From a virus, in IMG/VR virus record IMGVR_UViG_3300021138_000007, positions 1-64,000 of that record: a stretch of DNA of 64,000 nucleotides. The stretch is one strand, 5' to 3'. Position 1 is the stretch's first letter, and the number at the start of each line of letters is the position of its first letter. Shown here piece after piece: positions 1,264 to 53,809 of the stretch. Under the pieces are notes generated by a model that saw only the letters and a list, made by a program, of their open reading frames with translations, searched no databases and was not told the DNA's origin. The translations under genes and the position numbers were made by a program.

Positions 1264-1301
1264 TTCTTCAGCATAAAGGATATTCCCTTTATAAATAAGA
1301 A
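1264..1301. promoter_or_regulatory. Overlapping divergent pair of phage promoters (AGG-N17-AGAA)
   Basis: + strand: AGGA(1277-1280)-17 nt-AGAA(1298-1301). - strand: AGGG(1288-1285)-17 nt-AGAA(1267-1264). Lies between divergent genes. Confidence 0.75.
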
Positions 1302-1334
1302 TATTATAAAGTATTAGGTGTTAGGTGAGCTTAA

Positions 1335-2687
1335 ATGAACGATCAAATTATAAAAGATTTAATAAATATTGCAAATTCATTAGATGACAAATATATGTTT
1401 GATGAATCAGACGTAATCACCAAAATTGCAAAACAAATTTCAATTCATAATACGAAATATGCTGCGAATCCTCTTGGTAAATTTCAAAAAGATTTTATGC
1501 AAAAAACATTGAAAAATACAATCAATAACGAAATGCTTAATGCAAATCAACGTGATAATCAATTTTTATTAAAAACTTTAGGAGGAGCAGCGGCGGCTAC
1601 TGGTATTGGAGCTTTGGGCCTCTCGCAAATACCAAATAATCCACCTGCTATTTCTAATACTGCTACTACTGGTGTGCCAACTGCGGAATTACCTGCAAAT
1701 ACTAATCTTTTTTCATCATTAACTCCAAAACCACAAACTGCGCCTTTACCAAATAATGCGGCTGACATCACTTTGGAATTAATGATGCTTTTAGCCACAA
1801 TGCAAGAAGATAATAAAGTATTATTTAGCCCATATAAAGAAGACATTAATAAATTAATTAATAATGTTACTTTTGTTTTAAGAGAATATCAACAACTATC
1901 TAAAACAGCCAATTCTAAATTTTCTAGAATTATATTGAGTCAAAATTTTGGAGATGAAGTTGAAGAACCCAATGTAGAAGATAAAGCTTTTGGAGAGGGT
2001 GTGCCTAAAGAAAATTATTCATCAGAAGTTCAAAGTGTTTTGAACCAATTGGAACTTTATGTAAATTCAAATGAAGAACAAAAAATTAATGCTTTGATGA
2101 ATATAGATAATAATATTTATAAACATGGGCCTCAATTTATTCAACAATTAATTCAAAGTGACAATAACCATGTATTAGATAAATATGCGCAGGCAGTAAA
2201 TACCGTACTGAATGCACAACCTAGAAGCATAAAAGAAAACTACGCGCTCTCTACTTTAAAACAAATAATACAAGAATTTAGTCCGAATCTTAAAAGTTTA
2301 TTACATGGTAAAACTCTGTCTACAGATCAATTGCTGTCAGGGCAATATTTAAATGCACCCTATGAAGATAAAGCATTTAGTGATGATGGAATAAACTATA
2401 AAGAAACTGCGCAAAATAAAACAGAGTCTCAACAATTGACAAATATTTATACTGCTATGGCAAATAAATTCAAATATTATTACGATGATTTAAATAATAT
2501 CTTTAAAACATTACCTAATAATAATAATTTAAAACAACATTTTCAACTTATATTGATAAATATTAAATCTGGAGAAGAGTATTTTGAGAGAATTGTAAAA
2601 GAAAAACAATTCCCACAACTTGTAAATCCTGAAAAAATATCATCAAATGCCACAGTTGGAACAAGTCCAGGCAGTCAAATAAAATAA
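1335..2687 (+). CDS. Hypothetical Asn/Gln-rich protein with N-terminal shared tag and a Gly/Ala-rich hydrophobic segment
   Basis: N-terminus DLINIANSLDDKYMFDESDVITKIAKQIS; segment LGGAAAATGIGALGLS; RBS AGGTGA. Confidence 0.6.
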   Translation: MNDQIIKDLINIANSLDDKYMFDESDVITKIAKQISIHNTKYAANPLGKFQKDFMQKTLKNTINNEMLNANQRDNQFLLKTLGGAAAATGIGALGLSQIPNNPPAISNTATTGVPTAELPANTNLFSSLTPKPQTAPLPNNAADITLELMMLLATMQEDNKVLFSPYKEDINKLINNVTFVLREYQQLSKTANSKFSRIILSQNFGDEVEEPNVEDKAFGEGVPKENYSSEVQSVLNQLELYVNSNEEQKINALMNIDNNIYKHGPQFIQQLIQSDNNHVLDKYAQAVNTVLNAQPRSIKENYALSTLKQIIQEFSPNLKSLLHGKTLSTDQLLSGQYLNAPYEDKAFSDDGINYKETAQNKTESQQLTNIYTAMANKFKYYYDDLNNIFKTLPNNNNLKQHFQLILINIKSGEEYFERIVKEKQFPQLVNPEKISSNATVGTSPGSQIK

Positions 2688-2690
2688 TTT

Positions 2691-3131
2691 TTGTATAAGA
2701 TATTTATGCGAAAATTATCCTGCCAAATTGGAATTCCCATATCTGCCAATGAAATGTATGTTCCAATAAATAAAGGGCAACTTGTAAAAAGTAAAAAATA
2801 CAGAGAATGGATAGATAAAAATATTGTTATATTGAAAGAAAATATGTCTAAAGCAGAATCCTTTCCTATTGTAATTAATGTATTGGTTATGGGCGGAAAA
2901 GGCTGGTCTATGGATAGAGACATAGACAATGTGTGTAAACCTATTGTGGATTTATTAGTGAAAGCTGAAATCATTCCAGATGATAATAGTCGATATGTAG
3001 AAAAAGTTCATGCGCGTTATCTGCATTCTCCAGCTAAATCTACTGATGCATTAACTCTTATTAGCTTTGAAGAACCAGAAGAAGTGTTAGAGAACTTGTG
3101 GACATTTCCTAGTCTTTCTCAAAAGTCTTAA
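2691..3131 (+). CDS. rusA: RusA-family Holliday junction resolvase (likely start ATG 2706)
   Basis: PISAN N-terminal motif and RDIDNVCKPIVDLL...IIPDDNSRYV match the RusA DxDNxxKxxxDxL...DD signature. Confidence 0.85.
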   Translation: MYKIFMRKLSCQIGIPISANEMYVPINKGQLVKSKKYREWIDKNIVILKENMSKAESFPIVINVLVMGGKGWSMDRDIDNVCKPIVDLLVKAEIIPDDNSRYVEKVHARYLHSPAKSTDALTLISFEEPEEVLENLWTFPSLSQKS

Positions 3132-3420
3132 TTGCCATTTCTCTTCGCCAAGACATCATTAATCGAAGATTGGATAGAATTTGCTGAATTAATTCATGTT
3201 CTTTAGATGTAAGATGTTTTTTAGTATTAGCATTAAGTGTTCCGTCTAATATTTGCATACATTCATCTACACCTTGCATTTTTGATTCATAGCAAGCGAG
3301 TATAATATCTGCACGTATTTTTGCTAAATCTTCTGAATCAAGTTTATCCTTCCATTTATTTATTACTTCTGAAGAAATATCTTTGATGTCTCTAGATGCA
3401 TATAAGGGATTTTCTTTCAT
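3109..3420 (-). CDS. Hypothetical protein
   Basis: 103-aa ORF converging on rusA; no recognisable motif. Confidence 0.5.
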   Translation of the reverse strand: MKENPLYASRDIKDISSEVINKWKDKLDSEDLAKIRADIILACYESKMQGVDECMQILDGTLNANTKKHLTSKEHELIQQILSNLRLMMSWRREMAIKTFEKD

Positions 3421-3428
3421 GGCAAAAG

Positions 3429-3463: not shown

Positions 3464-3967
3464 TTATTTCTCAATATCTACTGGAACATTATATGGAAAT
3501 TGATTGTCTGGTAACTCAATTATTGGGATTCTTTTTCCTTCAGTATATCCTACTTCTGGATGATACAATGATTCATCTGTGTCAAATGGATCAAAAGAAT
3601 TACCATCAGTTAATTCTTCATCAGTTTTTAATTCATTCTCAAGATGATGCTTATCCTTGTCAAGAATGCTTTGTAAAAACTTGACTTCCTCTCTTTGCCA
3701 ATCTGATAAAGGTGTGCCTTTACTGTAAATCTCTACCATGCGTCTACGAGCCTCTGCTGGAGTTGTAGTTTCAACAGGAGGATTAGGGTTTTTGGCATTC
3801 ATATCTTTTACTAATTGTAGAGCTTGCATCCAAGCTTGATCGTCTTCTGCACCAGCTAAACGAATTAAAGTGTAAGTAATTCCATCAGCTTGATTGAAAT
3901 TATTATTCAAATCAGCTTTGTAAGCGACCTTAATTAAACGATTAACAACACTAGATAACTTTTCCAT
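3464..3967 (-). CDS. Hypothetical protein with N-terminal shared tag
   Basis: RLIKVAYKADLNNNFNQADGITYTLIRLAG; RBS AAGGA; own promoter at 4005-4029. Confidence 0.6.
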   Translation of the reverse strand: MEKLSSVVNRLIKVAYKADLNNNFNQADGITYTLIRLAGAEDDQAWMQALQLVKDMNAKNPNPPVETTTPAEARRRMVEIYSKGTPLSDWQREEVKFLQSILDKDKHHLENELKTDEELTDGNSFDPFDTDESLYHPEVGYTEGKRIPIIELPDNQFPYNVPVDIEK

Positions 3968-5234: not shown

Positions 5235-5480
5235 TTATACAATATGAATATCAGTAGACATTCTCTTTAAAACATTTGTAATTGCATCAGCTTTAACAAA
5301 ATCACCTGCATTATCAGCCTTTTGTGCTTCTTCAATCAATTTATCTACTTCATCGGTTACAGATTTTTTAGTTTTAGGTCTACAACTACCGTTTTCACCA
5401 GGCTTAGTTCCTGGCACTCTTTCATATCCTTCCCAACACTTCATTTTTTCTGCACTCTTATCCATCATAATATCCTTCAA
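5235..5480 (-). CDS. Small protein: CWxGY...C motif plus C-terminal shared tag (likely start ATG 5468)
   Basis: KCWEGYERVPGTKPGENGSCRPK followed by KLIEEAQKADNAGDFVKADAITNVLKRMS; RBS GAAGGA before ATG 5468. Confidence 0.65.
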   Translation of the reverse strand: MKDIMMDKSAEKMKCWEGYERVPGTKPGENGSCRPKTKKSVTDEVDKLIEEAQKADNAGDFVKADAITNVLKRMSTDIHIV

Positions 5481-7020: not shown

Positions 7021-7875
7021 TTAGCCAACAAGTATGCGTGACAGAGCATAGTCATTTATCACAGCAAATCCCAACTCTTCAAACACAACCCATCCAAGGC
7101 GAAGTCGCTTAGGATCGTCGGCAGGAAGAACAGTGATATCCTGTCGAACAGGCATAGCACCTACGAACTGTGCAGGAGCAAGTACGTAGACAGCGTTCTT
7201 AGGAACCATTGTGCTGACGTGAATGTCAGCGGAGTAGACGTGACCATAAAGACCAGTCTGAAGAACGTCTCGCTGAGTTGCCTGGTCGAAGACTTCAGGA
7301 CCCCAGGTTCGAATGTCCTTATATCGCTGTGGATGAAGAACAATCTTAGCACCAACAAGTTCGTGCTCTTCGATGAGGGTCAACGCGAGGTTGATGTTCT
7401 CAATCTGAAGTGTACCAACTACGCTGATGGAGTGGTCAGTTGGGATAGCAGCGTTGATGACCTTGAATACTTCAACGTCTTCTTGTCGCTGTAGACTATC
7501 CTTAGCGCGGACCTGTGCTCGGTCAACGATGTAGAAACGTCGCTGTCGAATTTCGTTCAAACGGATTGTTGGGTTAGAAGCTAACTCAATGGTTGGAACG
7601 AGAAGCTCTTCTGCTTCAACTTCGGCAGTAGGAACGCTACCTCTCTTAGGAATAACGTAGGACTTAACAGCGATATCTCGCTCGTATCGTGCCAACGCAC
7701 CCTGAGGTAATTCATCTACCATTAATAACTTGCGTCCGATAGCCTGGTAAAGTAAGCTAGTCTTGATTGGCTCTACCATTGCTTGTGCAAGAGCGGTTCG
7801 ACCCTCTGGAGTCTCAAGAGCCATTGCAATAATAGCTTCTTTCTGCTCTGCTACATTTCGTTTAATCATGCTCAT
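7021..7875 (-). CDS. Major capsid protein (HK97 fold, no obvious long propeptide)
   Basis: GRTALAQAMVEPI...GRKLLMVDELPQGALARYERD...VPTIELASNPTI pattern of large-phage HK97 capsids; strong RBS AAGGAG; follows protease, scaffold and decoration genes. Confidence 0.88.
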   Translation of the reverse strand: MSMIKRNVAEQKEAIIAMALETPEGRTALAQAMVEPIKTSLLYQAIGRKLLMVDELPQGALARYERDIAVKSYVIPKRGSVPTAEVEAEELLVPTIELASNPTIRLNEIRQRRFYIVDRAQVRAKDSLQRQEDVEVFKVINAAIPTDHSISVVGTLQIENINLALTLIEEHELVGAKIVLHPQRYKDIRTWGPEVFDQATQRDVLQTGLYGHVYSADIHVSTMVPKNAVYVLAPAQFVGAMPVRQDITVLPADDPKRLRLGWVVFEELGFAVINDYALSRILVG

Positions 7876-8655: not shown

Positions 8656-10497
8656 TTACTCCTCGATGCGAGGCATCGTGAACATACCACGTAATGCCGA
8701 TTGTAGATCATTCTGCGCATACTGATTGTCATTAACACCAGTGAATGCAGAAATGCCAATGTTGCTTGCAGTTCGCTTATTCATCTTTTCTGCGGCAGCA
8801 GCAGCTACTCTTTGAGCACTGCTCTGTGCGGCTCGAAGCATTAAATGTCCTTGCTGCAACATTGCGTTGTTTGTAAGCCCTTCGCTCAACCAAAGCTCAA
8901 CGTTTTGGTCTACTTCATCGGCAGAAATAATGCCTGCTAGGGCGAGTTTAGTGGAAACTGCATATGCAGTCTTTACACGAGACATTGCAAGATCGAAATC
9001 TTTAGAAGCTTTAGCTTCTTTATCTTTCATTGGCTTAACTTCTGTTAAATCATTATTCTTGTATTTTACAACTTCATCTTCTTTTTCAGAAGCTTCATTA
9101 ACAGTAATGTTAGTACCAGACTGAGCAACTGTTACATTAGCTGCACAAGATGGGCAATAACCCTCTTCTTCACAAGTTTCGCAGATAACTACTCTATTGC
9201 CGCAATCGCTGCAATGAATTAAGTTAGTAGCTACTCTTTCAGGGTTGTTACAGCCCTGGCATTCTACTGTCTTAGCAACAGTTGTTTTTCGAGCTTTAGG
9301 ACCCATTTGTGTAGGAATAGCTTGGTCGCTACCGCGATCAGGATCAGCAGAAGGCACTTGATTGATAGCACCAAAATCCGCTGTATATTGAAGAGTACCG
9401 TCTGGACTACCTTCTAATTTAATTACATTATAAGAATCTTTCAACTGAAGATTTTCAGGATTCATAGTAGGAATACTCTGCTTTTCAAATGTAGGATTAT
9501 CAGCCTTCAAGCTATTGCCTGCGCTATCTTCAAGAGTTAAAACAGGATATTCATCTTCGCCCTTATATTGAGCTTCGCCGTTAAATTGGAATGGTTTAGC
9601 CTTTTCACCGCCATAAGTACCAGAAGAAGTATCTTTACCGAGGCCAATATCCTTTGGCTTAGTACCTTCAGCTTGTGCAAGGCGTAAAATTGCTTCGCGC
9701 TCTGCTTTGCGCTGTGCGAGTGCCTTCTTTGTCATTTTATTCACCTTCGTAGATGCTGTGTGCGGCATGAATGTATCTTCACCTTCCGCGTCGTCTGAGT
9801 CTTCTTCTGACTCTGTGTCTTCGCCTTCTTCATCAGATTCGTCATCGTCTTCAGTATCATCTTCATTAGATTCTTCATTAGATTCTTCATCTTCAGGAGT
9901 GAAAACTTCTTCGGAGTCTTCATCTTCTTCATCAGAAAAAGGTTCGTCGCCGCCTAACAACTCTGTGAGTGCTTTTTCAATTGCTTGCTGTGCTTCTTCA
10001 AGTTTATCAGCGGGAAGTTCGATTTTAATAGTAGCTGTATCGAGGTCGTGATCGCTTACTTCGCCTAATCCTTCATGTTCTTCATCGGTAATATCTGTCG
10101 GTAAATCTAAATCGTTATCTTCTTGATCTCCCATAGCTGTTTCGCCAGGAAGTTTCAAATCGTCATTGGGTTCAACATTTGCGGAGTCATCATCTTTAGG
10201 CTCCATCGGAAGCCCCATCATCTGGGCGACAACTGTGTTGTCCAAACCATAAGAAGAAGCGATATTAGGAAGATATTTTGCGCGAACAGCAGCAGCAACA
10301 ATACGTGCTTCATCTTCGTTTAAAGATGCATGCTTTTTCATATCGTTTACGCAATTTTCCATATCTTCACTATCCGTTTCTTTTAAGGCAGCAAGGCGTA
10401 GAGCCTTGATTTGCTTCTCTTGGAGGGCATTGTCTTTAGTTTTATTCATAGTAGATGCTTCCCCTCTCATGATTTCTAAATTCTTTAAAAACCACAC
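8656..10497 (-). CDS. Probable scaffold/internal head protein with acidic tract and Cys-rich zinc-binding segment (likely start ATG 10449)
   Basis: Between protease and MCP; very D/E-rich middle; four CxxC pairs; helical C-terminus; RBS GAGGGG before MNKTK. Confidence 0.6.
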   Translation of the reverse strand: MWFLKNLEIMRGEASTMNKTKDNALQEKQIKALRLAALKETDSEDMENCVNDMKKHASLNEDEARIVAAAVRAKYLPNIASSYGLDNTVVAQMMGLPMEPKDDDSANVEPNDDLKLPGETAMGDQEDNDLDLPTDITDEEHEGLGEVSDHDLDTATIKIELPADKLEEAQQAIEKALTELLGGDEPFSDEEDEDSEEVFTPEDEESNEESNEDDTEDDDESDEEGEDTESEEDSDDAEGEDTFMPHTASTKVNKMTKKALAQRKAEREAILRLAQAEGTKPKDIGLGKDTSSGTYGGEKAKPFQFNGEAQYKGEDEYPVLTLEDSAGNSLKADNPTFEKQSIPTMNPENLQLKDSYNVIKLEGSPDGTLQYTADFGAINQVPSADPDRGSDQAIPTQMGPKARKTTVAKTVECQGCNNPERVATNLIHCSDCGNRVVICETCEEEGYCPSCAANVTVAQSGTNITVNEASEKEDEVVKYKNNDLTEVKPMKDKEAKASKDFDLAMSRVKTAYAVSTKLALAGIISADEVDQNVELWLSEGLTNNAMLQQGHLMLRAAQSSAQRVAAAAAEKMNKRTASNIGISAFTGVNDNQYAQNDLQSALRGMFTMPRIEE

Positions 10498-10647: not shown

Positions 10648-13600
10648 TTACTTGCTTACCATAAAAGTAATGGTTGCGAGTACTTTATCTGGTTGACCTT
10701 TGACAGAACTAATCTTGGTTCGAGACATAGTTCCGCAATCGTAGCAGAGAGTCGTGTTCTTGATCTTTTCTGCTGAACGGTTGCCGCATTTTGGACAAAT
10801 CATACCAACAGGTAATCTCTTTTCAGTATTTCTATCGAAATCTGGCATAGCAGTTCGAATAAATACATCACTGTCTGTCACATAGGAAGATCGGAACATA
10901 ATCACACGCTTAGATGCTGTAGCACCAGGGGCACCACCAGGCATTGGCGGAACACCACCGCCAGCAGGAGCAGGAGCGGGTGCTGTTGCCGCGCCTAAAC
11001 CAGCAGCTTCTTCTCCAGGCATAGCTTCTTCTCCAGGCATAGCTTCTTCAGCGCCTTCGTCCTTAGACTTGCCACCTTCTGTGCTTGGGAATACTTCAAC
11101 GTTTAAGGAGAACTTAAACTGTGCGTTACAAGAATGACATTCACCTTCACCATTTGTTACAGTAACATCATCGCTACCACACTGAGGACAAATGCTTCCC
11201 CAAGGTTTTTGTGTGCCTGGTTCTGGCATAGCATCTGTGTCAGGTTCTTCAGGAGTTTCATTGCCACCAGCGGCTGTAGGAACAGATAATGCACTCATGC
11301 CAAGAGAATCAGCAGGGCTACCACCAGGTCCGCCCATACCAGCCATACCACCAGCATCAAAACCGCCACCAGGAGCGGCAGGTGCGCCAACGTTACCTGG
11401 AACCTGAGCAAAACGATTAAGAATTGCTTTGCGTCGTGCTTTACGCAATTCTTTAGCGGATGCAGACATTACTACTGGAATATTCGCATCATTATCTACT
11501 ACAGACTCTTCTGGCTGTCGTGATTCTTCTAAACTATTTTCCATTCCTTCACCAGGAGCTTCTGTCATAGCAGGAGTTAAATCACCATTACCACTACCGA
11601 CTTCTGCTTTAAATGTTTTAGAAAATCGGGTTGTTACAATTGCTGTAATATCGCCATTCTCAGAAACATTAAGTTCTGTCATAGAAAATGTATTTGGATC
11701 AACTGTGTAACCATTGCTAGAAAGAATTTCAACTGCCTTCTGTCGGAATGCATCTTCAAAATTCTCATCTTTTGGATCAAGTCCACCAAGATCAGATGCT
11801 GTTGCAACAATCTGTAAACGAGTTGATTTTTCATCTGTAACAGTTACAGCGGCCTTCACCATTCGAGTAACAAGTTGTTCAGCAACTTTTGTTTGTTCAG
11901 CGGCTTTTTTAGCAGCTTCTACGATAGCATGGCTAGAATAAGAATAATTCTCTGCATAATCAGCAAGCCATCCTACAATAGATTCGTGTACATCTTTAAC
12001 AGATGCAGTTCGCGTATTGCCATAGAATTCCGCTCTTGCTTTTGCGGTTAATCTTGCTTCAATAGCTGATGCTGTTCGTGCTTCTTCAACTTCGGAAAGA
12101 AGAACATCTGCATCTGTATTTGCAATTTCTGCAACAACTTCAACAGGAAGTGCCGCAAGTTTTTGTGCAGTCATAGCCATTGCAGACAATGCTGCGCGAA
12201 CATGTGCAGGAGTAACAAACTTAGAATTCTCATCTTGCGCTTGAGAATTTAAAGCTGCTCTTAATCTATCGGCATAACTTACATTTTTACGAGTTGTTGA
12301 TGGTTCGATAACAACGTTATCTCCCAATATGGACTGTGCAATTCGAGTAATGCTCTTGTTAGTTGTGGATGCTTCGCTAGATGCAATTACTAATGCACTT
12401 GCTAAAGCAGCAGGAGTAATGTTAGAATTAACTTCCTGGCCCAATTGTTGCATAATTGCAAGATCAATAGAAACATCTGCACTTGCTAACTTATGGAATG
12501 CATTACGAGCAGCAATTCGCTGTCGATATTCATTGCCCAAAGAAGCGATTTTGATAAGATCAGCGAGATCATCTCTTTCAGCGAAAGTTCTTGCAGAAGC
12601 AACAACTTCATCAGGAGTTACTTTGCTTGCAACAACTGCTCGTCCAAGAGCATTAAGTGCCGCTTCCATAACGAGATTAGGAGCGCCAGGACCGTAATCA
12701 TGTCGAACAGCATCAAGTTGAAGTTCCATAACTTCTTTTGGATTACCATGTCGTGCATCATCAAGTAACTTTTCTTTAACATCATCATCAGTGCCACGAT
12801 GACCGTATAATTCGACATCAGAAAGTTTCTTTTCTTGATTCTCAACAGTGGTGCCTTTATGAGTGGATTTAAGTAATTCTTCTTTTACTTTACCAATAGA
12901 AGTATCGTTATGATGCTTATAATCGCCTGCATTATCAAGCAATTTTTCTTTAACTTCTATTTTCGTGCCTTCTCGTTCTGGGGCTAACTGTTTTTCTTGA
13001 ACAGTATCTACTTCATGATTTTGATCCCACTCTGCATAAACGGATCGTCCTTCTTTCTTAGCGGCAGAAACATGCTTGCCAAGATCAGAAAGCAATTGCG
13101 CAGCTACTTCATGTCCGCTGCCATTTTCCATTAATGTGAGTTGATTATCGGACAAAATAGGGTTCCAATCAACTAATTGATTATTGTTGTATCCTCGAAT
13201 GCCGCCATCTACTGTGCTGATTACGACGCGATTGCCTGAATTATCTTCAACTTTAAAGTCTATAGATACAGATGCTGCGCGTTGCTTTCGTTTTTCAGAT
13301 GCGACCTTTTTAAAGATTAATTTTTCTTCCATTATTTCATTTCCTCCAGTTTGCTGTTGTTTTTCAACTTGCATACTGTATTTTTTAGGCTGCGAATTTT
13401 CCGCGCTTCGCGTAGTGCTAATAGCGGACATACCAATGCTTTCTGCTAAAGCAGATAATGATTCTCCTAATACTGCAATTTTTGTTTTTCCGTCCATTTT
13501 ATTTGTTTGAGAATCTGATGTTTTTGATGCATAAACTTCTCGTTTATTTTTATCAGCAGAAGCCCAAACCAAATTCGCTTTAGGTGTTTCGCTTGCAAAA

Positions 13601-15003
13601 ACTCCTCCTCCAACGCCTGGGGCATTAAAGTTAAATGGAGACATCATTTGTCCAACTGAGCCAGTTGGAGAATAATTTTGCGGGGCAGTTTGTGGTGCTG
13701 GTGGTGCATTAAGGGGAGGATTTGCTTGTGCTCCGCCTTGCATATTTCCTTGATTTAATGGTGCATTGTTACCATTTTGAGGTTGTGGTGCTGCTTGACC
13801 TCCGCCAGTTACACCATCATCAATCATATCTTGCATTGTTGCCTGAAGATCAGCCATGCTCTTTGTAATTTTTCCAACGTGTGTTAAATCCACGTTATCT
13901 TTTCTAGCAAAAAGATTCATAACTGTTACTTCAAGGAAGTTTAATGCAAGGTTTAACATATCTAAAATATTCAATCCTGATTTAGGATCAATACCAAGAT
14001 AATGTAGAATGCTTGATACTGTTGTATTAGCATTTGCTCCATCAACTGATAATACTTGTCCTCCTACTAACGTACCAGCAGATTGTGCTAATCGCATAAG
14101 AGTATGAGTAGTTGATGTAACTTGTCTCAAACAATTTTCATAATTTTGTTTTGCTTCTCTTTCATTTGGCAATTGAGAAGCCGCCACCATTATAGAGGTA
14201 TTTAATGCATTAGCTTTCTTTTCAAGAGTCACAACTTTTTCAAGAATTTCTTCTACATCGTAAATTTCTTGAATTTCGCAAGCATCAAATGCTCCATTAC
14301 CCACGACACTAAGTTCGATGAATTTTAAGTCATGATTCTTTTCATAAATCAATTCACCGCTAGGGTCTTTTTTGCCTTTATATTTTCTAAGACAATTACA
14401 GTATTCTTTTTCTGTTGCAGCTACATTGCCACATTTAGAACAAGTACCGCTTTGAACTTCACAGCCCATTGAAACGTCGTGCATATATCCTGCACGAATT
14501 CCTTGAGCGATATCTGGGTATGCTTCTTCATCTACGAAGAAAGTACAATAGACACAATTGTCTTCTTCGTCCCATTCTGCATACACCACCATACCTTTAG
14601 CTTGTTCAATATCATCATTTTTATGGTTTGTGTAAATAGGAACTCCTTCAAAGGTTTTATATGCAGGAATTTTATCTCCTTTATATGTTACCTTTTTAAG
14701 TAGTTCAGCTTTTGAGAAATAATCACCGTTGGCGTTTACTGTATCAGCATCAATAGCTCGTGCTCTCACCCATAAAAGTTTGAGATTCTTTCGCTCTCGC
14801 ATAGCTTGAACAATATCAAAATCTTTATATTTCTCCAGAACTTCTTCTGCATCAGTATAAAGAGATTGCAATCCTGTACGTGCGGCTTCACGCATCTGGG
14901 ATGACGCCATTCGCAAACTATAATCTCCTGCGATTTTGCGATCTTCTAAGAGCACAAATTCTCGCATAGAAATTAGTCCACCTGATGGGCCACGTTTTAT
15001 CAT
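10648..15003 (-). CDS. Prohead (capsid maturation) protease fused to long scaffold-like and zinc-ribbon regions
   Basis: N-terminal NANGDYF...PIYTNH...AKG...VSMGC(CxxC)...FIELSVV, typical of HK97/assemblin-fold phage proteases; followed by G/P/A linkers, ExxL repeats and C-terminal CxxC ribbons; sits between portal and MCP. Confidence 0.8.
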   Translation of the reverse strand: MIKRGPSGGLISMREFVLLEDRKIAGDYSLRMASSQMREAARTGLQSLYTDAEEVLEKYKDFDIVQAMRERKNLKLLWVRARAIDADTVNANGDYFSKAELLKKVTYKGDKIPAYKTFEGVPIYTNHKNDDIEQAKGMVVYAEWDEEDNCVYCTFFVDEEAYPDIAQGIRAGYMHDVSMGCEVQSGTCSKCGNVAATEKEYCNCLRKYKGKKDPSGELIYEKNHDLKFIELSVVGNGAFDACEIQEIYDVEEILEKVVTLEKKANALNTSIMVAASQLPNEREAKQNYENCLRQVTSTTHTLMRLAQSAGTLVGGQVLSVDGANANTTVSSILHYLGIDPKSGLNILDMLNLALNFLEVTVMNLFARKDNVDLTHVGKITKSMADLQATMQDMIDDGVTGGGQAAPQPQNGNNAPLNQGNMQGGAQANPPLNAPPAPQTAPQNYSPTGSVGQMMSPFNFNAPGVGGGVFASETPKANLVWASADKNKREVYASKTSDSQTNKMDGKTKIAVLGESLSALAESIGMSAISTTRSAENSQPKKYSMQVEKQQQTGGNEIMEEKLIFKKVASEKRKQRAASVSIDFKVEDNSGNRVVISTVDGGIRGYNNNQLVDWNPILSDNQLTLMENGSGHEVAAQLLSDLGKHVSAAKKEGRSVYAEWDQNHEVDTVQEKQLAPEREGTKIEVKEKLLDNAGDYKHHNDTSIGKVKEELLKSTHKGTTVENQEKKLSDVELYGHRGTDDDVKEKLLDDARHGNPKEVMELQLDAVRHDYGPGAPNLVMEAALNALGRAVVASKVTPDEVVASARTFAERDDLADLIKIASLGNEYRQRIAARNAFHKLASADVSIDLAIMQQLGQEVNSNITPAALASALVIASSEASTTNKSITRIAQSILGDNVVIEPSTTRKNVSYADRLRAALNSQAQDENSKFVTPAHVRAALSAMAMTAQKLAALPVEVVAEIANTDADVLLSEVEEARTASAIEARLTAKARAEFYGNTRTASVKDVHESIVGWLADYAENYSYSSHAIVEAAKKAAEQTKVAEQLVTRMVKAAVTVTDEKSTRLQIVATASDLGGLDPKDENFEDAFRQKAVEILSSNGYTVDPNTFSMTELNVSENGDITAIVTTRFSKTFKAEVGSGNGDLTPAMTEAPGEGMENSLEESRQPEESVVDNDANIPVVMSASAKELRKARRKAILNRFAQVPGNVGAPAAPGGGFDAGGMAGMGGPGGSPADSLGMSALSVPTAAGGNETPEEPDTDAMPEPGTQKPWGSICPQCGSDDVTVTNGEGECHSCNAQFKFSLNVEVFPSTEGGKSKDEGAEEAMPGEEAMPGEEAAGLGAATAPAPAPAGGGVPPMPGGAPGATASKRVIMFRSSYVTDSDVFIRTAMPDFDRNTEKRLPVGMICPKCGNRSAEKIKNTTLCYDCGTMSRTKISSVKGQPDKVLATITFMVSK
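11005..11049. repeat. 18-nt tandem repeat (2.5 copies) encoding EEAMPG
   Basis: AGCTTCTTCTCCAGGCAT x2 plus a partial copy. Confidence 0.9.
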
Positions 15004-15079: not shown

Positions 15080-15104
15080 TACTAGCTTTTTGATACGCAA
15101 ACCT
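15080..15104 (-). promoter_or_regulatory. Phage promoter AGGT-N17-AGTA upstream of the protease
   Basis: ACAAGGT ttgcgtatcaaaaagct AGTA; a weaker second copy AGGC-N17-TGAA lies at 15154-15178. Confidence 0.65.
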
Positions 15105-15184: not shown

Positions 15185-15222
15185 TAAAAAGAAAAGGAAG
15201 AAATTTCTTCCTTTTCTTTTTA
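15185..15222. terminator. Perfect palindrome/terminator at the end of the portal gene
   Basis: TAAAAAGAAAAGGAAGAAA|TTTCTTCCTTTTCTTTTTA with no spacer. Confidence 0.7.
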
Positions 15223-18200
15223 GAGTGTAATAGATTTACCTGAATTATTGGAATTACCTAAAAGTAATTGAATAGTTCTTAGAATTACATTGGCAATTTC
15301 TCTTGGGTGATCGATAATTTCTTGTTCTGTGAATCTAAGAATATGCCATCCTTGGGCAAATAATTCACTGTCTCTTGCTTTATCTTGCGCTATTTTTTCT
15401 GGACTAGCATGAAATGTTTTAGAATCAGCTTCAATACCGATTTTCAATGATGGAATTGCACCATCTAATTGATATTTCATTCCAGGGCCAGCTTGATATT
15501 GAGCGTAAAATGCCCAAGGTATATTCATAGATAAAATAATATCATATAGTTTTTGTTCTAAACTTGTGAACATTCTTGGAGCCGCTTTTTCTTCTTTCTT
15601 TTTAGCTGCATATCTGTGATATTCTTCTGGTTGATTTCTGGAAAATTCATTAATTACAGTTTGATATTCAAACATTGCAGGCCAATTTTGAGGAACACAG
15701 TTTTCTCCACCCAATAATGGAGTAGAGCTAATAATTTCCACCATATGATCTAATTTATCTGGCATTCGCCCAAATATACCTCTTCCAGTTGTTGGTACTT
15801 GAGATTCTAAGAATTCTAAATGAGCTTGTGATTTAATTTGTTTACTAGCGATACGCACATTTATACTTTCTTTTTGTGGGGTAATTCTTTCATCATAAAC
15901 TTGATTTACGATTGCCGCTGCCAATCTGTAATTTTCTTCTGGATTCACAGAAGCCAATGGTCCCATTGGAGGTGCTGGCGCAGGAACTGCACCGCCGCCT
16001 TCAGCACCTGGCATTGTAGGCATTCCTGGTAAACCACCTGAAGGAGACATGCCCATCATACCGCCCATCATACCGCCATAGCCTGCACCACCAGAGAATC
16101 CTGATGATGCATCAATTCCAGAAATAGAAGGACTTGCAATCATATTGGCAGATTGTTCATATCGTAAATATTCAACTTCTTCGTCGTAGTCGTATCCAAA
16201 AGCTTCAATAACTCTACGATTAGAGAACACACCATTTTGATTTCCAGTCACAAGCATTTGTAATTTACCAGTATCATCTCTTAACTGTAAATCATTCCAT
16301 TTAACTGTTGGATAAATATAATCTTCTTGTCCGCGCTCACCTTCAATAACAAAATCATTCCATTTTGCACACTGACGATATAAACATTCTTCAAGCCATT
16401 CAGATAATTCATTTTGCCATGATTTAAGCCTTTCAGCCATAGTTAAAAGGCCAACTTGTGCATTGGAATAACTTGGGCCATCTCCATTAATAATAGCTTT
16501 ATTAAGCATCATACCATCAATCAATTCTTGATCAATAAGTTCATATTCATTTGTTAATTGAAGTACTTTTCCAGAGTTGCCGTGAATTGAAATTTTACCA
16601 TTTCTTCGAGTAATAAGCAATCCTGAATTTACGGTAAAACAATACACAAAATCATTGTAATCTACATGTTTAATATTTCGGCTACGAACGACTCTGCTTT
16701 CTGTTTTTTCAGCCCAATAAACACGATGAATTGGTAAATGATTATCTTGTTTACGGTTATCTTCGGCGTCAAATGTAATCTTTGCATTGAAGCCTAATTT
16801 AACCGCAATTTCTTGCACTGCATTTGCTAATTCAATAGATGTAGTAGTATATCTATATTTTAATCCTTTGCCGCTTGGACGTTCATCTCCATCTCCATCC
16901 ATTAATGCATTAATTAAGATATTTAATTTATCAGATGGTAAATCTAAAATCCAGCGAGGAACATGTTTATGATTTGATAAATGACCAAATTCATTTAACA
17001 TATATTCGGCTAAACAAGTGCTGTGAACATTGTAATGAGTGACTGGTTCATAATTGTTCCATGAAATATCAGAGAACTTTGTTTTTTCACCAAAACAATT
17101 TCTAAGAATATTATGAATTCTTTTTTGAGACTCAGTATTTGCTTTTTGATAAATTGAAACAGTTGAATATCCACAAGAACACTCTGTTTTTTTACGCAGA
17201 CTGCCCTCAGACAAATAATAACCAACAAAAGCAAGAAAATCATCTATATCCACATCTGCTAACATAGGACAAGCTTTTGCATAAGGCATTTCTTCTGGCA
17301 AAATCCCACTCCATGAAACAGTTGACAAGAATTTATCGTGATCAGTTATTTGATCTGCTCTAATTTTTTGCCATTCTGTATTTTCATAATGATTGGTATT
17401 TGAACTCCAAATTCGTTTTTGGACTAACATTTCATGATTTGGCGTAACTAATGTATCATAATGTTTTCCCGTGAAATTAATTAATGGACCAAATTTTCTT
17501 GAATCATATTCGTGAACATGGCGTTCAAGCGGAACATCCCATTGTATTAACCCTGTCTTAACGTCATAAGTCGCAATTAATTCATCGTCTTTAACATCTT
17601 TGAATAATTTAAAGCCTTCTTTTGTAAGAACTTCTGTATCCGAAGAATAGCAGGCTCCGATATAATCAAATTCAAAAGCATGGTGTGTAACTAATGTCAA
17701 TAATGGATCATTAGCAACTGCGGCCAATTCATCTTGAACATTTTGAATATCTTGTTCATTAGCACGTTGATTTTCGCTACCAATTTTTACAATTTTAATA
17801 GGAATAATATGTCTTTCAGCAACAAGCCATTGTGCAGAACGTAATTTATCTTTATATGCCAGAGTCATAAATAAAGGACGAATCATTGACATACCATAAG
17901 GTTGCCAAGGAGCGCCAGCACGTTTAAAATGCCACATACATTCATTTTCTAGTTTAATAGGTTTTCGTTGAAGAATAAGTTTTTTAAGTTTATCTGGAAT
18001 TGCATCATATTGTTCTTTAGGACTTTGTGTTTCAACAACTTTAAATTCTGCTTCAGTAGGCATATATAGGAATGTATCTGGCATACCCATAATTCCTTTA
18101 ATTTTTTCTATAGAATCGGGTGGGAAAATATAGATTGATGACCATGTAGCTCCAGGGTGTTCACATCTTTCTCCTGTTTCCTGATCCTCATTTGTTCCAA

Positions 18201-18744
18201 AACAATGTCTGCAATCAATAGAAGCATGTACAAAACAATCGCCTCGAAGATGATATTCTTGAGAAATTAATGGCAATATAGAACGTATACGTAATTTCTT
18301 ATTTAATTTATCAAAATAATCTTTTACATAAGAAGTTGCGCATTCCAGTTCAAATCCGCTTACAGGAAAATGTGAATAAAAATTAATTCCTGCGGCAATC
18401 TTAGGCTCATTATTAAACCAGTATTCTGCCCACCAATAGACGCCATTTCGGTCATTTGGCACCTGCATTGCTTGATTAGTCAAAGCAGGAGAATAGAAAT
18501 TAGGTCCAGTTGTGACATTTCCCATAGCAGATGTTAATCCGCCATAGCCAGATTGAGCAAAACGCAAACTACTTGCATTGGCTGTAAATGGTTTTTTATT
18601 ATCAAAATATGCTGTTTTTGAAGCTGCATATTTAGGTAAATAATCAGAAGATGCGCCAGAAATCATCTCTCCTGTAACTTGTTGTCCTGCTGTTCTTAAC
18701 ACTGATAACAGTGTTGGTGCTTCTCTAGTTGCCAAAATGTACAC
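15220..18744 (-). CDS. Portal protein with intein and C-terminal DUF559/Vsr-like nuclease domain
   Basis: Portal-like EPKIAAGINFYS, EYHLRGDCF, WHFKR..PWQPYGMSMIRP, GPSYSNAQVGL; C-terminal LEQKL..QY..YQLDGAI..KIGIEADSKTFH..DKARD..GWHILRF. Confidence 0.8.
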   Translation of the reverse strand: MYILATREAPTLLSVLRTAGQQVTGEMISGASSDYLPKYAASKTAYFDNKKPFTANASSLRFAQSGYGGLTSAMGNVTTGPNFYSPALTNQAMQVPNDRNGVYWWAEYWFNNEPKIAAGINFYSHFPVSGFELECATSYVKDYFDKLNKKLRIRSILPLISQEYHLRGDCFVHASIDCRHCFGTNEDQETGERCEHPGATWSSIYIFPPDSIEKIKGIMGMPDTFLYMPTEAEFKVVETQSPKEQYDAIPDKLKKLILQRKPIKLENECMWHFKRAGAPWQPYGMSMIRPLFMTLAYKDKLRSAQWLVAERHIIPIKIVKIGSENQRANEQDIQNVQDELAAVANDPLLTLVTHHAFEFDYIGACYSSDTEVLTKEGFKLFKDVKDDELIATYDVKTGLIQWDVPLERHVHEYDSRKFGPLINFTGKHYDTLVTPNHEMLVQKRIWSSNTNHYENTEWQKIRADQITDHDKFLSTVSWSGILPEEMPYAKACPMLADVDIDDFLAFVGYYLSEGSLRKKTECSCGYSTVSIYQKANTESQKRIHNILRNCFGEKTKFSDISWNNYEPVTHYNVHSTCLAEYMLNEFGHLSNHKHVPRWILDLPSDKLNILINALMDGDGDERPSGKGLKYRYTTTSIELANAVQEIAVKLGFNAKITFDAEDNRKQDNHLPIHRVYWAEKTESRVVRSRNIKHVDYNDFVYCFTVNSGLLITRRNGKISIHGNSGKVLQLTNEYELIDQELIDGMMLNKAIINGDGPSYSNAQVGLLTMAERLKSWQNELSEWLEECLYRQCAKWNDFVIEGERGQEDYIYPTVKWNDLQLRDDTGKLQMLVTGNQNGVFSNRRVIEAFGYDYDEEVEYLRYEQSANMIASPSISGIDASSGFSGGAGYGGMMGGMMGMSPSGGLPGMPTMPGAEGGGAVPAPAPPMGPLASVNPEENYRLAAAIVNQVYDERITPQKESINVRIASKQIKSQAHLEFLESQVPTTGRGIFGRMPDKLDHMVEIISSTPLLGGENCVPQNWPAMFEYQTVINEFSRNQPEEYHRYAAKKKEEKAAPRMFTSLEQKLYDIILSMNIPWAFYAQYQAGPGMKYQLDGAIPSLKIGIEADSKTFHASPEKIAQDKARDSELFAQGWHILRFTEQEIIDHPREIANVILRTIQLLLGNSNNSGKSITL
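16576..17652 (-). mobile_element. Intein (359 aa) with LAGLIDADG endonuclease in the portal
   Basis: YIGA|CYSSDTEVLT ... VTPNH ... VYCFTV ... ISIHGN|SGK; endonuclease motifs FVGYYLSEG and LINALMDGDG. Confidence 0.9.
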
Positions 18745-29752: not shown

Positions 29753-29777
29753 TACGATTGTTAAGAATCATTTACCT
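29753..29777 (-). promoter_or_regulatory. Phage promoter AGGT-N17-CGTA
   Basis: TAAAGGT aaatgattcttaacaat CGTA. Confidence 0.65.
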
Positions 29778-33786: not shown

Positions 33787-34581
33787 TTAACCAACAATTG
33801 CGCGAGTTAATCGTGCGTGTGGAGAAACTGTATCAGCAACTTTTACGAGATATTCATCTGCTAAACCGAACTGTGCAAAATTTCCTTTTTGGAATCTTGA
33901 TCCAGAACTAGTGCCAGATTCTAAATCAACATCAATAACGCCTTTCGCAGTAGAAACTTTATATTGTCCTTCTGATTCGGCTTTAAAAATTCGAGCTTGG
34001 GTTTTTTCTGCAAGCAAAACACTATTAAGCATAGCTTCTTCAATCCAAGGTTTTAATTCACCATGAAGTGTTTCGAGTGCAAATTTATCCTCTTTTGCAG
34101 CTTTTACAAGTCTACTAAAAGAGTCCAGACCCTTACGAGATAAACGCATAATCGGCTGTTCTCCAGTGGTTAATAAATTAATAAACTCATTGGTTGCAGT
34201 TGATTTTAAAGTATCTTCAATAATAGGAGCAACATCATTGTACTTAGTGGGCACAACCATAGCAGTGCGCTGTGGTTTATATGATGTTTGGGCTGTGACA
34301 ACTTCATAAACGTCTTCGACAGCAGCTTTAGCAATAGCCATGCTATAACCATCAGCAATCATCATATCAATTGCTTCATTTTCGTTGAAATCACGGCTCT
34401 TTAATTGCTGTGCTACTTGCGCAGCAACAATTCGCTCACCCTGGTCGTTTTTACGCAAACTGTTGCGCCAATTGTAAATCATGTCATCTGTTTGAGTAGA
34501 TTCAGAATAAGTCGTTCCAAGCACTGTTGTACTCTCCTTGGTATAAACCGTTTTTGTCTCTTTTACACGGCAAAATTTCAT
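33787..34581 (-). CDS. Hypothetical protein
   Basis: 264-aa ORF with several xxA[QS] sites; no family recognised. Confidence 0.55.
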   Translation of the reverse strand: MKFCRVKETKTVYTKESTTVLGTTYSESTQTDDMIYNWRNSLRKNDQGERIVAAQVAQQLKSRDFNENEAIDMMIADGYSMAIAKAAVEDVYEVVTAQTSYKPQRTAMVVPTKYNDVAPIIEDTLKSTATNEFINLLTTGEQPIMRLSRKGLDSFSRLVKAAKEDKFALETLHGELKPWIEEAMLNSVLLAEKTQARIFKAESEGQYKVSTAKGVIDVDLESGTSSGSRFQKGNFAQFGLADEYLVKVADTVSPHARLTRAIVG

Positions 34582-34633: not shown

Positions 34634-35230
34634 TTATATGATAAAATCTTCAGAAATTAATTCTTTTATTTTATGAATAGCTCTTTGAAGCCTTTTACAA
34701 AATGAAGCCTGTGTAATATTTAATTTAGCAGCAGCTTCGACTTGAGTATAATTCTGAAAAAAATACAAATCAATCGCCTCTTTTTGTCTAGGATTCATTT
34801 TATTAAGGGCATTATTGATCAATTCTGTATATTTGATTTTATTGAATGGATCACCATCATCTGTGGGTTGCCATGATTCAGGCATTTCGCTAAATGTAAT
34901 TTCTTCTATACCATTGCCAGAAGTATTTTGGCCCAAAAATTGTTTTCTGCATCTTGATAAAATGATATAATCAATTCGAGTGGAAAGAAAATAACTAAAA
35001 TATGATAATTCTGGGTCATATTGCATAGCAATTTGATGTAAAGCTAAAATAGATTCTTGTTCTACATCTTCTTTATACTTGATCAACTTTGAATCTTTGC
35101 TTAAACATCGAGAAACAGACGCTTTTAAAAGCGGATCATAAAATTCACATAATTCAGATAAAGCTTCTGAATCATCCAACTTAACTTTATTTACAAGTTC
35201 ATTTATATAAAAATAATGACTTTCTAACAA
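34634..35230 (-). CDS. Sigma-70 family RNA polymerase sigma factor
   Basis: Region 2 EDVEQESILAL..YDP..YFSYFL; region 4 LNKMNPRQKEAIDLYFFQNYTQVEAAAKLNITQASF. Confidence 0.85.
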   Translation of the reverse strand: MLESHYFYINELVNKVKLDDSEALSELCEFYDPLLKASVSRCLSKDSKLIKYKEDVEQESILALHQIAMQYDPELSYFSYFLSTRIDYIILSRCRKQFLGQNTSGNGIEEITFSEMPESWQPTDDGDPFNKIKYTELINNALNKMNPRQKEAIDLYFFQNYTQVEAAAKLNITQASFCKRLQRAIHKIKELISEDFII

Positions 35231-35251: not shown

Positions 35252-35276
35252 TACTGTTAAAAAGTCATTATTGCCT
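35252..35276 (-). promoter_or_regulatory. Phage promoter AGGC-N17-AGTA upstream of a sigma gene
   Basis: TGCAGGC aataatgactttttaac AGTA(TAAT). Confidence 0.6.
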
Positions 35277-37655: not shown

Positions 37656-38306
37656 TTAAGGCCAATTTTCACTTTCTTCTTTTTCAAGAAGGAATTGGCT
37701 ATAAACTTCTTTAGCTTTTTTGCGTATTCTAGTTAATGCATTATCAACAGCTTTTTGCTGAATACCTAATCTTTCTGCTATATCTTTATAGGTGGAATCG
37801 TAGGCACACTCAGAATAAACTGCTTCTTCTAACATTGTTAATTTTTCACACAATCTTTGACTAATTTCCCTATATTCATCTTGAGCCAACATATTGTCTG
37901 TAATGGAAATACCATCGTCTTGTATGGTATTTGCTAAAGATTGTACCATATCATCGTCTGTAATAATTAAAGGCGCATCTAAAGAAATAGCCAAATTGTG
38001 ATGTTTATACTTAAAGCGGAATGATTGAGTTAAAGAAGTTTTTAATTGCCTTTTAACACAAACGTTAATAGCAAAATTCTCCCAACTTGCTCCGCCTTCT
38101 TCTTCAAAAGCATTTACTGCTTTTGAAACAGCAATTCTGCATTCTTGTAAAATGTCTTCTTTGTCTAAACCTGCTATATATATACTAGATGCAATCTTTT
38201 TTAGCTTAGGCTCTAAGCTTTTAAGAAGGCTATCAAATGATGCATTGTCGCCATTTTTGGCGGATCGGATTAATAATAATGTCCGTATATCGTGATTGTT
38301 TGACAA
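37656..38306 (-). CDS. sigH: Sigma-H-like RNA polymerase sigma factor
   Basis: YIAGLDKEDILQE..ASWENFA..CVKRQLKT..ISLDAP..TYKDIAERLG..KAVDNALTRIRKK parallels Bacillus/Clostridium SigH (GADREDIVQE, SLDKP, KSIDNALQRVKRK). Confidence 0.85.
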   Translation of the reverse strand: MSNNHDIRTLLLIRSAKNGDNASFDSLLKSLEPKLKKIASSIYIAGLDKEDILQECRIAVSKAVNAFEEEGGASWENFAINVCVKRQLKTSLTQSFRFKYKHHNLAISLDAPLIITDDDMVQSLANTIQDDGISITDNMLAQDEYREISQRLCEKLTMLEEAVYSECAYDSTYKDIAERLGIQQKAVDNALTRIRKKAKEVYSQFLLEKEESENWP

Positions 38307-40052: not shown

Positions 40053-40126
40053 TTTTATTTTTCCGTGTGCTCAATTGAGCTATTTTTATTATCGTGCTTT
40101 TTTGTTAATTTATTTGATATTTTGAT

Positions 40127-45550: not shown

Positions 45551-45689
45551 TAAAAATCTCCTTATTTATGTCGTTTCGTTATTTAAACGTACTTATGACG
45601 AAACGCTTAACGAATGACTCAATATAGTTTCGTGCATTTTTTGTCATTTTTATATTGTTATAGATAATTTTGGCGCTCACGAAGCAAAA

Positions 45690-49616: not shown

Positions 49617-49619
49617 TTA

Positions 49620-52553: not shown

Positions 52554-52569
52554 CTAAATTTAGAATGTT

Positions 52570-52601
52570 AAAAGTATAGCCAGAATTCTGGCTATACTTT
52601 T
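52570..52601. terminator. 32-bp perfect palindrome, probable terminator
   Basis: AAAAGTATAGCCAGAATTCTGGCTATACTTTT. Confidence 0.7.
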
Positions 52602-52610
52602 GTTTAGAGA

Positions 52611-53615
52611 TTAACCCCAGACTTCATCTTCTTCACTGCTTTCTTCGCTGAAAGGATTAGACTCCTCTGCTACTGTCGCAGTTTTAGCTTTAGCCTTTGC
52701 AGGCTTAGATGCTACTGGTGCTACGGTGGATTCGCTATCTTCGTCTTCGTCAGCATTAGCAGTAATAGTCATTTCATGTGACTTTGTGCTTTCTTCTGTG
52801 GTTCGGATTGGTGCGAACTTATAGATGCGCGATAATGGGTATCCATAGGTGTAGAAATCTTCCCAATCTGGGAATGGAGTATCTGCGAGATTGTACTCTG
52901 CGTCTTTACGAAGTTTAGCATCTTCTGCTTTTTCAGCAAGATATTCGCTTCGCTTTTCTTCCAATTCTTCTGGCTTAGGCTCATTGATTTTTCGGAACAT
53001 CTCAATTTCTTCATCTGTTAATCGAGTTTTCTTGTTCTTAATATTTACTTCATACTCAACCTTGCCGATCTTTTTGTCATTGTACTTAGCAATGATTTCA
53101 ATTTCATGTGCATATCGTCCGCCCATAAATGTGATAAGCTTATCGCTATCATCATACTTTTCCTTAACATTTTCGCGGTGGTTGGCAAGCTCTGCCTTGG
53201 TAATTTCTTTAAAAATAGAACTACCCTTCTTGAGAATCTTAGGTACAGAAGTACCGTCAGGAAGTCTTAAAAGACAATTTTGAGCGTACTGAGGATTAGG
53301 TCGATAACCCAATGCATACCAAGGACATTCGTCCTTGTTCTTTAAACCAACACGAGTGAGCGACTTATTAAGCTCTGCATCTGGGAAAGGAACAGCGGTT
53401 GGAGTTGTTTTGCCATCTTTATTAGGATCGGGCAATTCTTGAAGATTGTTATATTCAACAAAATCAATAGGAAAACCAACAAGGCGAATCGTAACTTCTT
53501 TAGTTTCTCCCTTGCCTACTTTAAGATCAAGTAGAGAATCTTTGAGAGATGTGCGATTGTTGTTTGAATTAGTTCGTTCTTGAACTGATTTGGGTGTAAC
53601 TGTACGTATTGACAT
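52611..53615 (-). CDS. Probable single-stranded DNA-binding protein (gp32-like position and tail)
   Basis: Next to recA; acidic C-terminus SEESSEEDEVWG; strong RBS AAGGAG. Confidence 0.6.
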   Translation of the reverse strand: MSIRTVTPKSVQERTNSNNNRTSLKDSLLDLKVGKGETKEVTIRLVGFPIDFVEYNNLQELPDPNKDGKTTPTAVPFPDAELNKSLTRVGLKNKDECPWYALGYRPNPQYAQNCLLRLPDGTSVPKILKKGSSIFKEITKAELANHRENVKEKYDDSDKLITFMGGRYAHEIEIIAKYNDKKIGKVEYEVNIKNKKTRLTDEEIEMFRKINEPKPEELEEKRSEYLAEKAEDAKLRKDAEYNLADTPFPDWEDFYTYGYPLSRIYKFAPIRTTEESTKSHEMTITANADEDEDSESTVAPVASKPAKAKAKTATVAEESNPFSEESSEEDEVWG

Positions 53616-53784
53616 ATATTTCTCCTTTGAGTCAGTAATTGATTATAACGCTATCTGATTTTTGGAATCAATTGATTCTACAGACTTTGCATTTTTCGAT
53701 TACTCTGGACTAATTATCGTGCTTTTTTCTAAATTTCATTACTGATTTTTAGAATATGTGAATTTTTTACTTCACATTATTATT

Positions 53785-53809
53785 TTCTACAAATGAATAG
53801 TTTTATCCT
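53785..53809 (-). promoter_or_regulatory. Phage promoter AGGA-N17-AGAA embedded in an inverted repeat
   Basis: TAAAGGA taaaactattcatttgt AGAA, within IR 53779-53829. Confidence 0.6.

Follow-up and report, generated by a model that had tools for sequence, protein, structure and literature searches.

Gene layout of the locus

The stretch of DNA analyzed here (the window) covers positions 1 to 64,000 of the IMG/VR virus record IMGVR_UViG_3300021138_000007 and is the first part of a 112,111-bp viral contig (G000). Our subject is a two-box motif that recurs in it, i.e. AGG followed 19 nucleotides (nt) later by GAA, together with the sigma factor gene 37656..38306, whose product is its proposed reader. 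The contig is about one third of a giant phage of ~350 kb, because its completeness is 31% according to CheckV. It has a G+C content of ~33%, nearly all genes of the window lie on the minus strand, and the DNA sequencing runs that contain the phage are freshwater and lake metagenomes. Head and packaging genes span 0–33 kb of the window. The replication module spans 33–64 kb and includes genes for a clamp loader, a beta clamp, a dUTPase, and IF3, as well as two sigma-family genes (Table 1).

Genes were called with a simple heuristic based on open reading frames and ribosome-binding sites. Pfam and PHROGs return no match for most of the small promoter-proximal genes, and a megablast of 20 kb against GenBank phages also returns none. 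A search for relatives with the single sigma protein 37656..38306 found nothing, i.e. no close relative. Using an alignment of the five metagenomic homologues of this sigma as query, we obtain 57 IMG/VR loci (L numbers below) on contigs of up to 379 kb, in which the gene order around the sigma is conserved. Two complete relatives, G001 (378,848 bp) and G004 (347,392 bp), were analyzed whole, and the identity of their proteins to those of this phage is mostly 25–55%.

A two-box motif with one spacing and one orientation

An earlier note on this DNA had listed 12 sites of the type AGG(N)-N17-(A/C)G(A/T)A, one of them a base shorter, and all 12 read as it described them, at the given coordinates and on the given strands. 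The pattern we counted, AGG-N18-[AC]G[AT]A, is identical to its AGGN-N17-four-mer and separates AGG from GAA by 19 nt. The two strands of the whole contig together hold 50 copies, and 17 of these are intergenic, compared with an intergenic fraction of only 9.6%. Thirteen copies are intergenic, directed toward a gene, and <150 nt from its start. By contrast, the same pattern at spacings of 15, 16, 18, 19, and 20 yields 0–2 intergenic gene-directed sites, in agreement with the fixed 17-nt spacing that the note had proposed. Coding counts have no peak at spacing 17, and 80 upstream regions hold 14 copies in the direction of the gene and 4 in antisense. When these regions are shuffled with their dinucleotides preserved, the mean is 1.33 ± 1.16 copies, and none of 500 shuffles exceeds 7.

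A blind dyad scan of 38 upstream regions at 1–71 kb ranks AGG-N19-GAA at the top (9 vs. 1.35 expected, P = 1.2e-5), a value that in this contig alone is not significant after 65,536 tests. A scan for generic sigma-70 consensus sequences stays near chance and is uninformative (100 vs. 75 ± 7.5 expected, and 98 vs. 94 ± 11).

In the 12 sites, the −35 box has T as its fourth base 7 times, A 3 times, and G and C once each (AGG is fixed by construction), and AGG is preferably preceded by A or C and then A. The −10 four-mer is AGAA in 8 sites, AGTA in 2, and CGAA and CGTA in 1 each, with T next in half of them. The fuller motif is a/c-A-AGG-t/a, 17 nt, and (A/C)G(A/T)A, and a few sites are shorter by one base. 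An additional good site lies beyond the window, at 73311-73335(+).

This promoter-like family is found mainly before head and packaging genes, including the operon of the major head protein, the gene for the prohead-protease protein, and the gene that follows the large terminase (Table 1). The sites 1277..1301 and 1264..1288 stand back-to-back, and their −35 boxes overlap as a near-palindrome. The site at 26627-26650, previously described as a 16-nt variant, matches a sub-class with 18 nt between AGG and GAA (N18) that is found elsewhere, and its leaderless geometry is common in relatives. The site at 53785-53809 is probably not a promoter of this class: another box, GCACGATAAT, lies between it and the gene (about 53713-53722), and the site is not conserved in orthologues, with the G004 orthologue having TTCACGATAAT instead.

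Table 1. Motif sites, sigma factor genes, and other features of the window (N17 is the distance between the two four-mers)
Feature	Coordinates	Strand	Remarks
Site AGGA-N17-AGAA	1277..1301	+	33 nt before 1335..2687
Site AGGG-N17-AGAA	1264..1288	-	27 nt before 811..1236
Site AGGT-N17-AGAA	4005..4029	-	37 nt before 3464..3967
Site AGGT-N17-AGAA	5499..5523	-	18-30 nt before 5235..5480
Site AGGT-N17-AGAA	10533..10557	-	Before 8656..10497, at the head of the operon whose last gene encodes the major head protein
Site AGGT-N17-AGTA	15080..15104	-	76 nt before 10648..15003
Site AGGT-N17-CGAA	24370..24394	-	Before 23280..24350
Site AGGA-N17-AGAA	26107..26131	-	37 nt before 25560..26069; retained in the G001 orthologue
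Variant one base shorter, AGG-N18-GAA	26627..26650	-	GAA exactly 10 nt before the ATG at 26616
Site AGGT-N17-CGTA	29753..29777	-	20 nt before 28497..29732, directly after the large terminase gene
Ambiguous site AGGC-N17-AGTA	35252..35276	-	In front of the ECF-like sigma gene; shares bases with a perfect TATAAT (35253-35248)
Doubtful site	53785..53809	-	169 nt from gene 52611..53615
SigH-like sigma factor gene	37656..38306	-	216 aa; proposed reader; replication module, between clamp-loader and beta-clamp genes
ECF-like (group 4) sigma factor gene	34634..35230	-	198 aa; rival reader or second cascade tier
Major head protein gene	7021..7875	-	phrog_2522, E = 2.5e-67; lies downstream of the 10533 site and lacks one of its own
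Gene for 1451-aa protein with N-terminal prohead-protease domain	10648..15003	-	
Portal gene	15220..18744		Homing-endonuclease-like inserts: LAGLIDADG-like and DUF559/restriction-endonuclease-like segments
Large terminase gene	29778..32930	-	Marks the head/packaging module
GCACGATAAT-type boxes	about 40088-40097, 45625-45634, 51168-51177, 53713-53722	-	Also at about 64011-64020 of the contig
aa, amino acids; ECF, extracytoplasmic function.

Conservation of the motif in related giant phages

The enrichment recurs independently in both complete relatives, at a protein identity of only ~40–50%. At the AGG-N18-four-mer spacing, G001 has 29 intergenic oriented sites (1–6 at eleven other spacings) and G004 has 15 (0–6 at other spacings). 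Shuffles give 4.3 ± 2.1 copies in G001, where 30 are observed, and 4.0 ± 1.9 in G004, where 13 are observed. The blind dyad scan of G001 finds AGG-N19-GAA 41 times (6.5 expected, P = 1e-19). GAA is the dominant −10 form among the sites of both genomes.

The best conserved position is the site before 28497..29732, with the exact pattern in 11 of 16 non-redundant relatives, including a contig with 54% G+C. Sites also precede the orthologues of 10648..15003, 8656..10497, 25560..26069, and 23280..24350. Specifically, the orthologues of 8656..10497 retain a site in both G001 and G004; for 10648..15003, G001 retains the site and G004 has an N18 variant; and for 23280..24350, G001 has a site with 19 nt between the boxes and G004 one with 18 nt. 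This conserved position before orthologous genes is the strongest evidence that the motif has a function. The motif and the SigH-like sigma are also co-conserved in dozens of related giant phages.

In G004, the GAA box lies 9–11 nt from the ATG in 8 of 15 sites, and the same is seen at many other loci. At this distance, GAA can be read as the −10 box of leaderless or near-leaderless mRNAs, and the distance is compatible with a sigma-H start ~7 nt after the −10 box.

We read the motif as a promoter because it is asymmetric, is oriented with the downstream gene, and has a spacing as rigid as that of −35/−10 pairs. The sites could instead bind a phage regulator, or the motif could be a compositional by-product of AT-rich leaders and ribosome-binding sites, given that AGG resembles part of a Shine-Dalgarno sequence and GAA is frequent in AT-rich DNA. 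We regard this as very unlikely, since the enrichment is restricted to one spacing and one orientation, the distance from AGG to the start codon is 35 nt or more and so beyond Shine-Dalgarno range, the motif persists in the relative with 54% G+C, and the fixed distance between GAA and ATG in relatives suits a −10 box.

A SigH-like sigma factor as the proposed reader

The product of 37656..38306 contains only the Pfam domains Sigma70_r2 and Sigma70_r4_2, which corresponds to the architecture of sigma-H (~200–220 aa, no regions 1.1 and 3). Its five best NCBIfam matches are SigH models (TIGR02859 and NF006145-8; E = 8.5e-27 to 5.9e-23, full length), and the next family follows at 3e-15. The SigH alignment covers residues 12–199 of the protein and 23–208 of the 218 model positions. 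The only PDB match is the sigma-H entry 3MZY (the one solved sigma-H), and the region 4.2 recognition helix, KAVDNALTRIRKK, is of the SigH type and aligns with KSIDNTIQRIRKK of 3MZY. With SigH models as best matches and 3MZY as the only structural one, the label "sigma-H-like" that the protein had been given from its sequence holds. Within the helix, K185, V187, D188, N189, L191, R193, R195, and K197 are invariant in six phage-clade sequences, as is the following A198.

The cellular relatives that GTDB genomes contain belong to the SigH type and come from Clostridia, Fusobacterium, Thermosipho, and Armatimonadota, with 25–36% identity over the segment that aligns best. A quick maximum-likelihood tree groups 14 of 15 phage SigH-like copies in a single clade (SH-aLRT 98) amid cellular sigmas of the SigH type, and it resolves no sister group or donor lineage for this clade.

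The sigma-H consensus of Bacillus subtilis is AGGAATT-N14-CGAAT (PMC6849360). Its 19 nt between AGG and GAA are the only spacing that is enriched in all three phage genomes. The phage motif thus has the geometry of sigma-H (Spo0H) promoters of B. subtilis and other Bacillota, with C or A before GAA and, in half of the 12 sites, a T after it, and the proteins are likewise similar in size, in having regions 2 and 4 only, and in the recognition helix common with 3MZY. The differences are that the gene is here phage-encoded, lies in a replication module, belongs to a phage clade of its own, and is no more than 34% identical to any cellular SigH found; that most sites have AGGT at −35, where sigma-H promoters have AGGA; and that the targets are phage head genes rather than sporulation or competence genes.

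No RNA polymerase beta or beta-prime domains were detected by Pfam in the contig or in the complete relatives, although very divergent phage polymerases could escape such a search. Phage sigmas combined with the core enzyme of the host are therefore the likely machinery. The SigH-like gene of relatives comes after the clamp-loader gene without a promoter-like gap, which fits expression of this sigma with the replication genes, ahead of the late genes.

Altogether, we infer that AGG-N19-GAA is the late (virion-gene) promoter class of an uncultured clade of freshwater giant phages, read by the SigH-like sigma 37656..38306, and assign this reading a probability of about 0.6. Promoter identity, late timing, and the reading sigma are in this way deduced from what is observed, namely the motif, its spacing, orientation, and conservation, and the resemblance of the sigma. 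In the proposed mechanism, a phage sigma would retarget the host core RNA polymerase. The SigH-like sigma would be produced from the replication (middle) gene block and bind the host core, its region-4 helix reading AGG at −35 and its region 2 reading GAA at −10. Transcription would begin a few bases downstream of GAA, so that head, protease, and packaging-adjacent operons would be switched on. In this phage and in some relatives, where the same promoter type would precede the ECF-like sigma gene, regulation could have one more tier.

Other candidate readers of the motif

The note had named the SigH-like protein as the reader, with two other sigma-like proteins as further candidates. For the SigH-like protein, motif geometry, SigH matches, and recognition helix all speak in its favor, and the assignment to this sigma remains a probable one. 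As to the number of sigmas, two are supportable in the contig (37656..38306 and 34634..35230). We rejected the third candidate, 57978..58952, which has a region-4 match of only E = 0.05, weak generic helix-turn-helix matches, and no NCBIfam match.

Several points weigh against the SigH-like sigma as the reader. Its best score, 93.9 bits, is far below the SigH equivalog cut-offs of 208–414 (the G001 orthologue reaches 104–112 bits on SigH models). At base 4 of the −35 box, T is found in 7 of 12 sites, where sigma-H has A, T follows GAA in only 6 of 12, and two sites have a −10 box, CGTA or CGAA, that also resembles those of ECF promoters. By our own gene calls, an ECF-like sigma accompanies the SigH-like gene in 33 of 36 loci; L014, re-checked whole, has a region-4 match for the ECF-like sigma, and L056 and L062 have only weak extra region-4 matches. 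The complete relatives carry 3–4 sigmas, the extra ones being one FliA/SigK-like sigma in G001, and one SigW-like ECF sigma and one weak candidate in G004, the latter preceded by the motif. Because motif-bearing relatives also have the ECF-like sigma, and complete genomes 3–4 sigmas, co-occurrence cannot single out the SigH-like protein. Finally, autoregulation is frequent among ECF sigmas, and the ECF-like gene of this phage has the motif in front.

These points would suit a genuine phage promoter class read by a different phage sigma, i.e. the ECF-like protein 34634..35230, which would positively regulate its own gene, or an additional sigma found only in the complete relatives. The motif stands before the ECF-like gene in this phage, in G001, and in L057, as for an autoregulated ECF sigma, and in breadth of conservation and in synteny this gene equals the SigH-like one. 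Some −10 boxes read CGTA or CGAA, and the complete relatives hold a third and fourth sigma, one of them with the motif in front (G004). ECF promoters, however, have AAC as the hallmark of their −35 box and CGT at −10, whereas the sites here show no conserved AAC after AGG, and no more than 2 of the 12 have CG at −10. The ECF-like protein has a recognition helix unrelated to the SigH type, and the motif equals the sigma-H consensus in spacing and resembles it in both boxes. Moreover, 27 of 33 relatives have (T)GTATAA before the ECF-like gene yet retain AGG-N19-GAA before head genes, and the accessory sigmas are not conserved across the clade. We therefore consider a different phage sigma rather unlikely as the reader.

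The site before 34634..35230 had also been taken to imply a cascade or positive feedback. The motif is indeed present there, but it overlaps a TATAAT and is a feature of a sub-clade rather than a conserved one: a clean AGG-N19-GAA precedes the ECF-like gene only in G001 (= L019) and L057. In the 27 of 33 relatives mentioned above, the (T)GTATAA box at this place is conserved and resembles an extended −10.

A host alternative sigma (e.g. the host SigH) could also read the sites, in which case the phage would borrow a stationary-phase or developmental signal, and its own sigmas would serve other promoters. The motif matches a cellular sigma-H consensus, and SigH-type sigmas occur in Bacillota, Fusobacteriota, Thermotogota, and Armatimonadota, which makes a host copy plausible. 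It is hard to explain, however, why the phage clade would have kept its own monophyletic SigH-like gene beside the replication genes if a host factor sufficed, and dependence of all head genes on a conditionally expressed host sigma would be fragile. We find a host reader quite improbable compared with the phage-encoded SigH-like sigma.

A wider scenario, which we hold to be doubtful, is that the freshwater giant phage clade, possibly with hosts outside the Bacillota (e.g. Armatimonadota), captured a SigH-type sigma once as the master switch of a multi-sigma cascade (SigH-like, then ECF-like or accessory), often driving leaderless late mRNAs. If so, activation of the host's own SigH regulon by the phage sigma could be a side effect of infection.

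Comparison with known phage systems

Phage sigmas that re-aim the host polymerase to phage-specific promoters are classic (SPO1 and T4). Bacillus phage SPO1, for example, uses gp28 for middle genes and gp33/34 for late genes. The phage described here would resemble SPO1 in having no RNA polymerase of its own and in using several phage sigmas that re-aim the host core at phage-specific two-box promoters in temporal order. It differs in its promoter consensus and in the SigH family of its sigma, and we claim no homology to gp28 or gp34. The SPO1 sigma system is described in PMC13401047 and PMC9429907.

Other Bacillus phages encode sporulation-like sigmas (SP10 g120, SPO1 gp2.21, and Goe3), which are SigF/SigG/SigK-like, accessory, and thought to act on host dormancy genes (PMC9429907); SigH is without mention in that article. 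These are likewise phage-borne homologues of developmental sigmas of Bacillota, whereas the sigma described here is core to its phage clade and matched to a promoter class before virion genes. For phage 7-11, a phage sigma was reportedly paired with computationally inferred promoters (PMC4331800). The type of inference is the same, i.e. a sigma and a recurrent intergenic two-box motif, and the phage group, sigma family, and motif differ. An overview of jumbo phages mentions sigma factors only for T4-like groups (PMC7824862), and a limited literature search found no published account of a SigH-family phage sigma with sigma-H-type late promoters.

No new principle is involved, as this is a well-known type of phage gene switch that uses an uncommon component. 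If the sigma assignment is true, the SigH family, which controls sporulation and competence, would have been recruited as a phage late-gene factor. Giant phages known from metagenomes have almost no experimentally grounded gene regulation, and the promoter allows a temporal sorting of hundreds of unknown genes, those behind AGG-N19-GAA being probably virion or late genes. It also offers a simple biochemical test system made of one small sigma, a short promoter, and a heterologous core RNA polymerase.

Other promoter-like boxes and features of the sigma and head genes

Five genes of the contig whose products start with MWY(K/R), at 64810(-), 65559(-), 81704(+), 88557(+), and 89305(+), are preceded by TTAAAGG, 18–19 nt, and then GAA, GTA, or CAA. 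The distance to the ATG is ~10 nt in 4 of the 5 and 20 nt at 89305. These boxes appear to be looser, leaderless forms of the same promoter type, and the MWY genes of G001 and L047-L049 are preceded by the same arrangement.

A second recurrent box, (A-rich)-GCACGATAAT (once GCACGAAACTATA), is found before genes of the replication module, and boxes similar to it occur in a few relatives (L006, L007, L016, and L019). Its GATAAT resembles a −10 box, and it may serve as a promoter of middle genes. Of the copies of ACGATAAT in the contig, 5 of 11 are intergenic; this intergenic enrichment is seen in this contig only, with none in G001 or G004, and we claim no clade-wide class for it.

In G001 (L063-L065), the first 55 kb hold ~90 copies of a different family, AAAAATCCCC(T-rich)-N-ATCGGATATATAA, with the ATG following after 3–5 nt. 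This family has the look of a dense class of early genes with leaderless transcripts, and its counterpart in the contig studied here may be the GTC-N16-GAC sites at 90–112 kb.

Just before the start of the SigH-like gene, at 38313-38323(-), a conserved mini-hairpin overlaps the ribosome-binding site. It reads GCC-GTGA-GG-AG in this phage and GCC-TTCG-GG-AG in most relatives, i.e. GNRA and UUCG tetraloops alternate, and the hairpin might regulate how the sigma is translated. Positions 34620-34633, immediately behind the ECF-like sigma gene and ahead of 33787..34581, form a perfect 14-nt palindrome, AAGGAATATTCCTT. This palindrome resembles the overlapping −35 core of the divergent pair at 1264-1301, but neither strand offers a GAA box to match. 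Armatimonadota and Fimbriimonadales recur among those cellular homologues of the phage sigma and of IF3 (41103-41567) that are named, a weak hint that the host may lie outside Bacillota.

The major head protein (7021-7875) is 89% identical to the G001 copy and 76% identical to the G004 copy, compared with 25–55% in most other shared proteins, which points to unusually strong constraint or recent exchange. The segments inserted in the portal gene suggest an intein or an inserted homing endonuclease.

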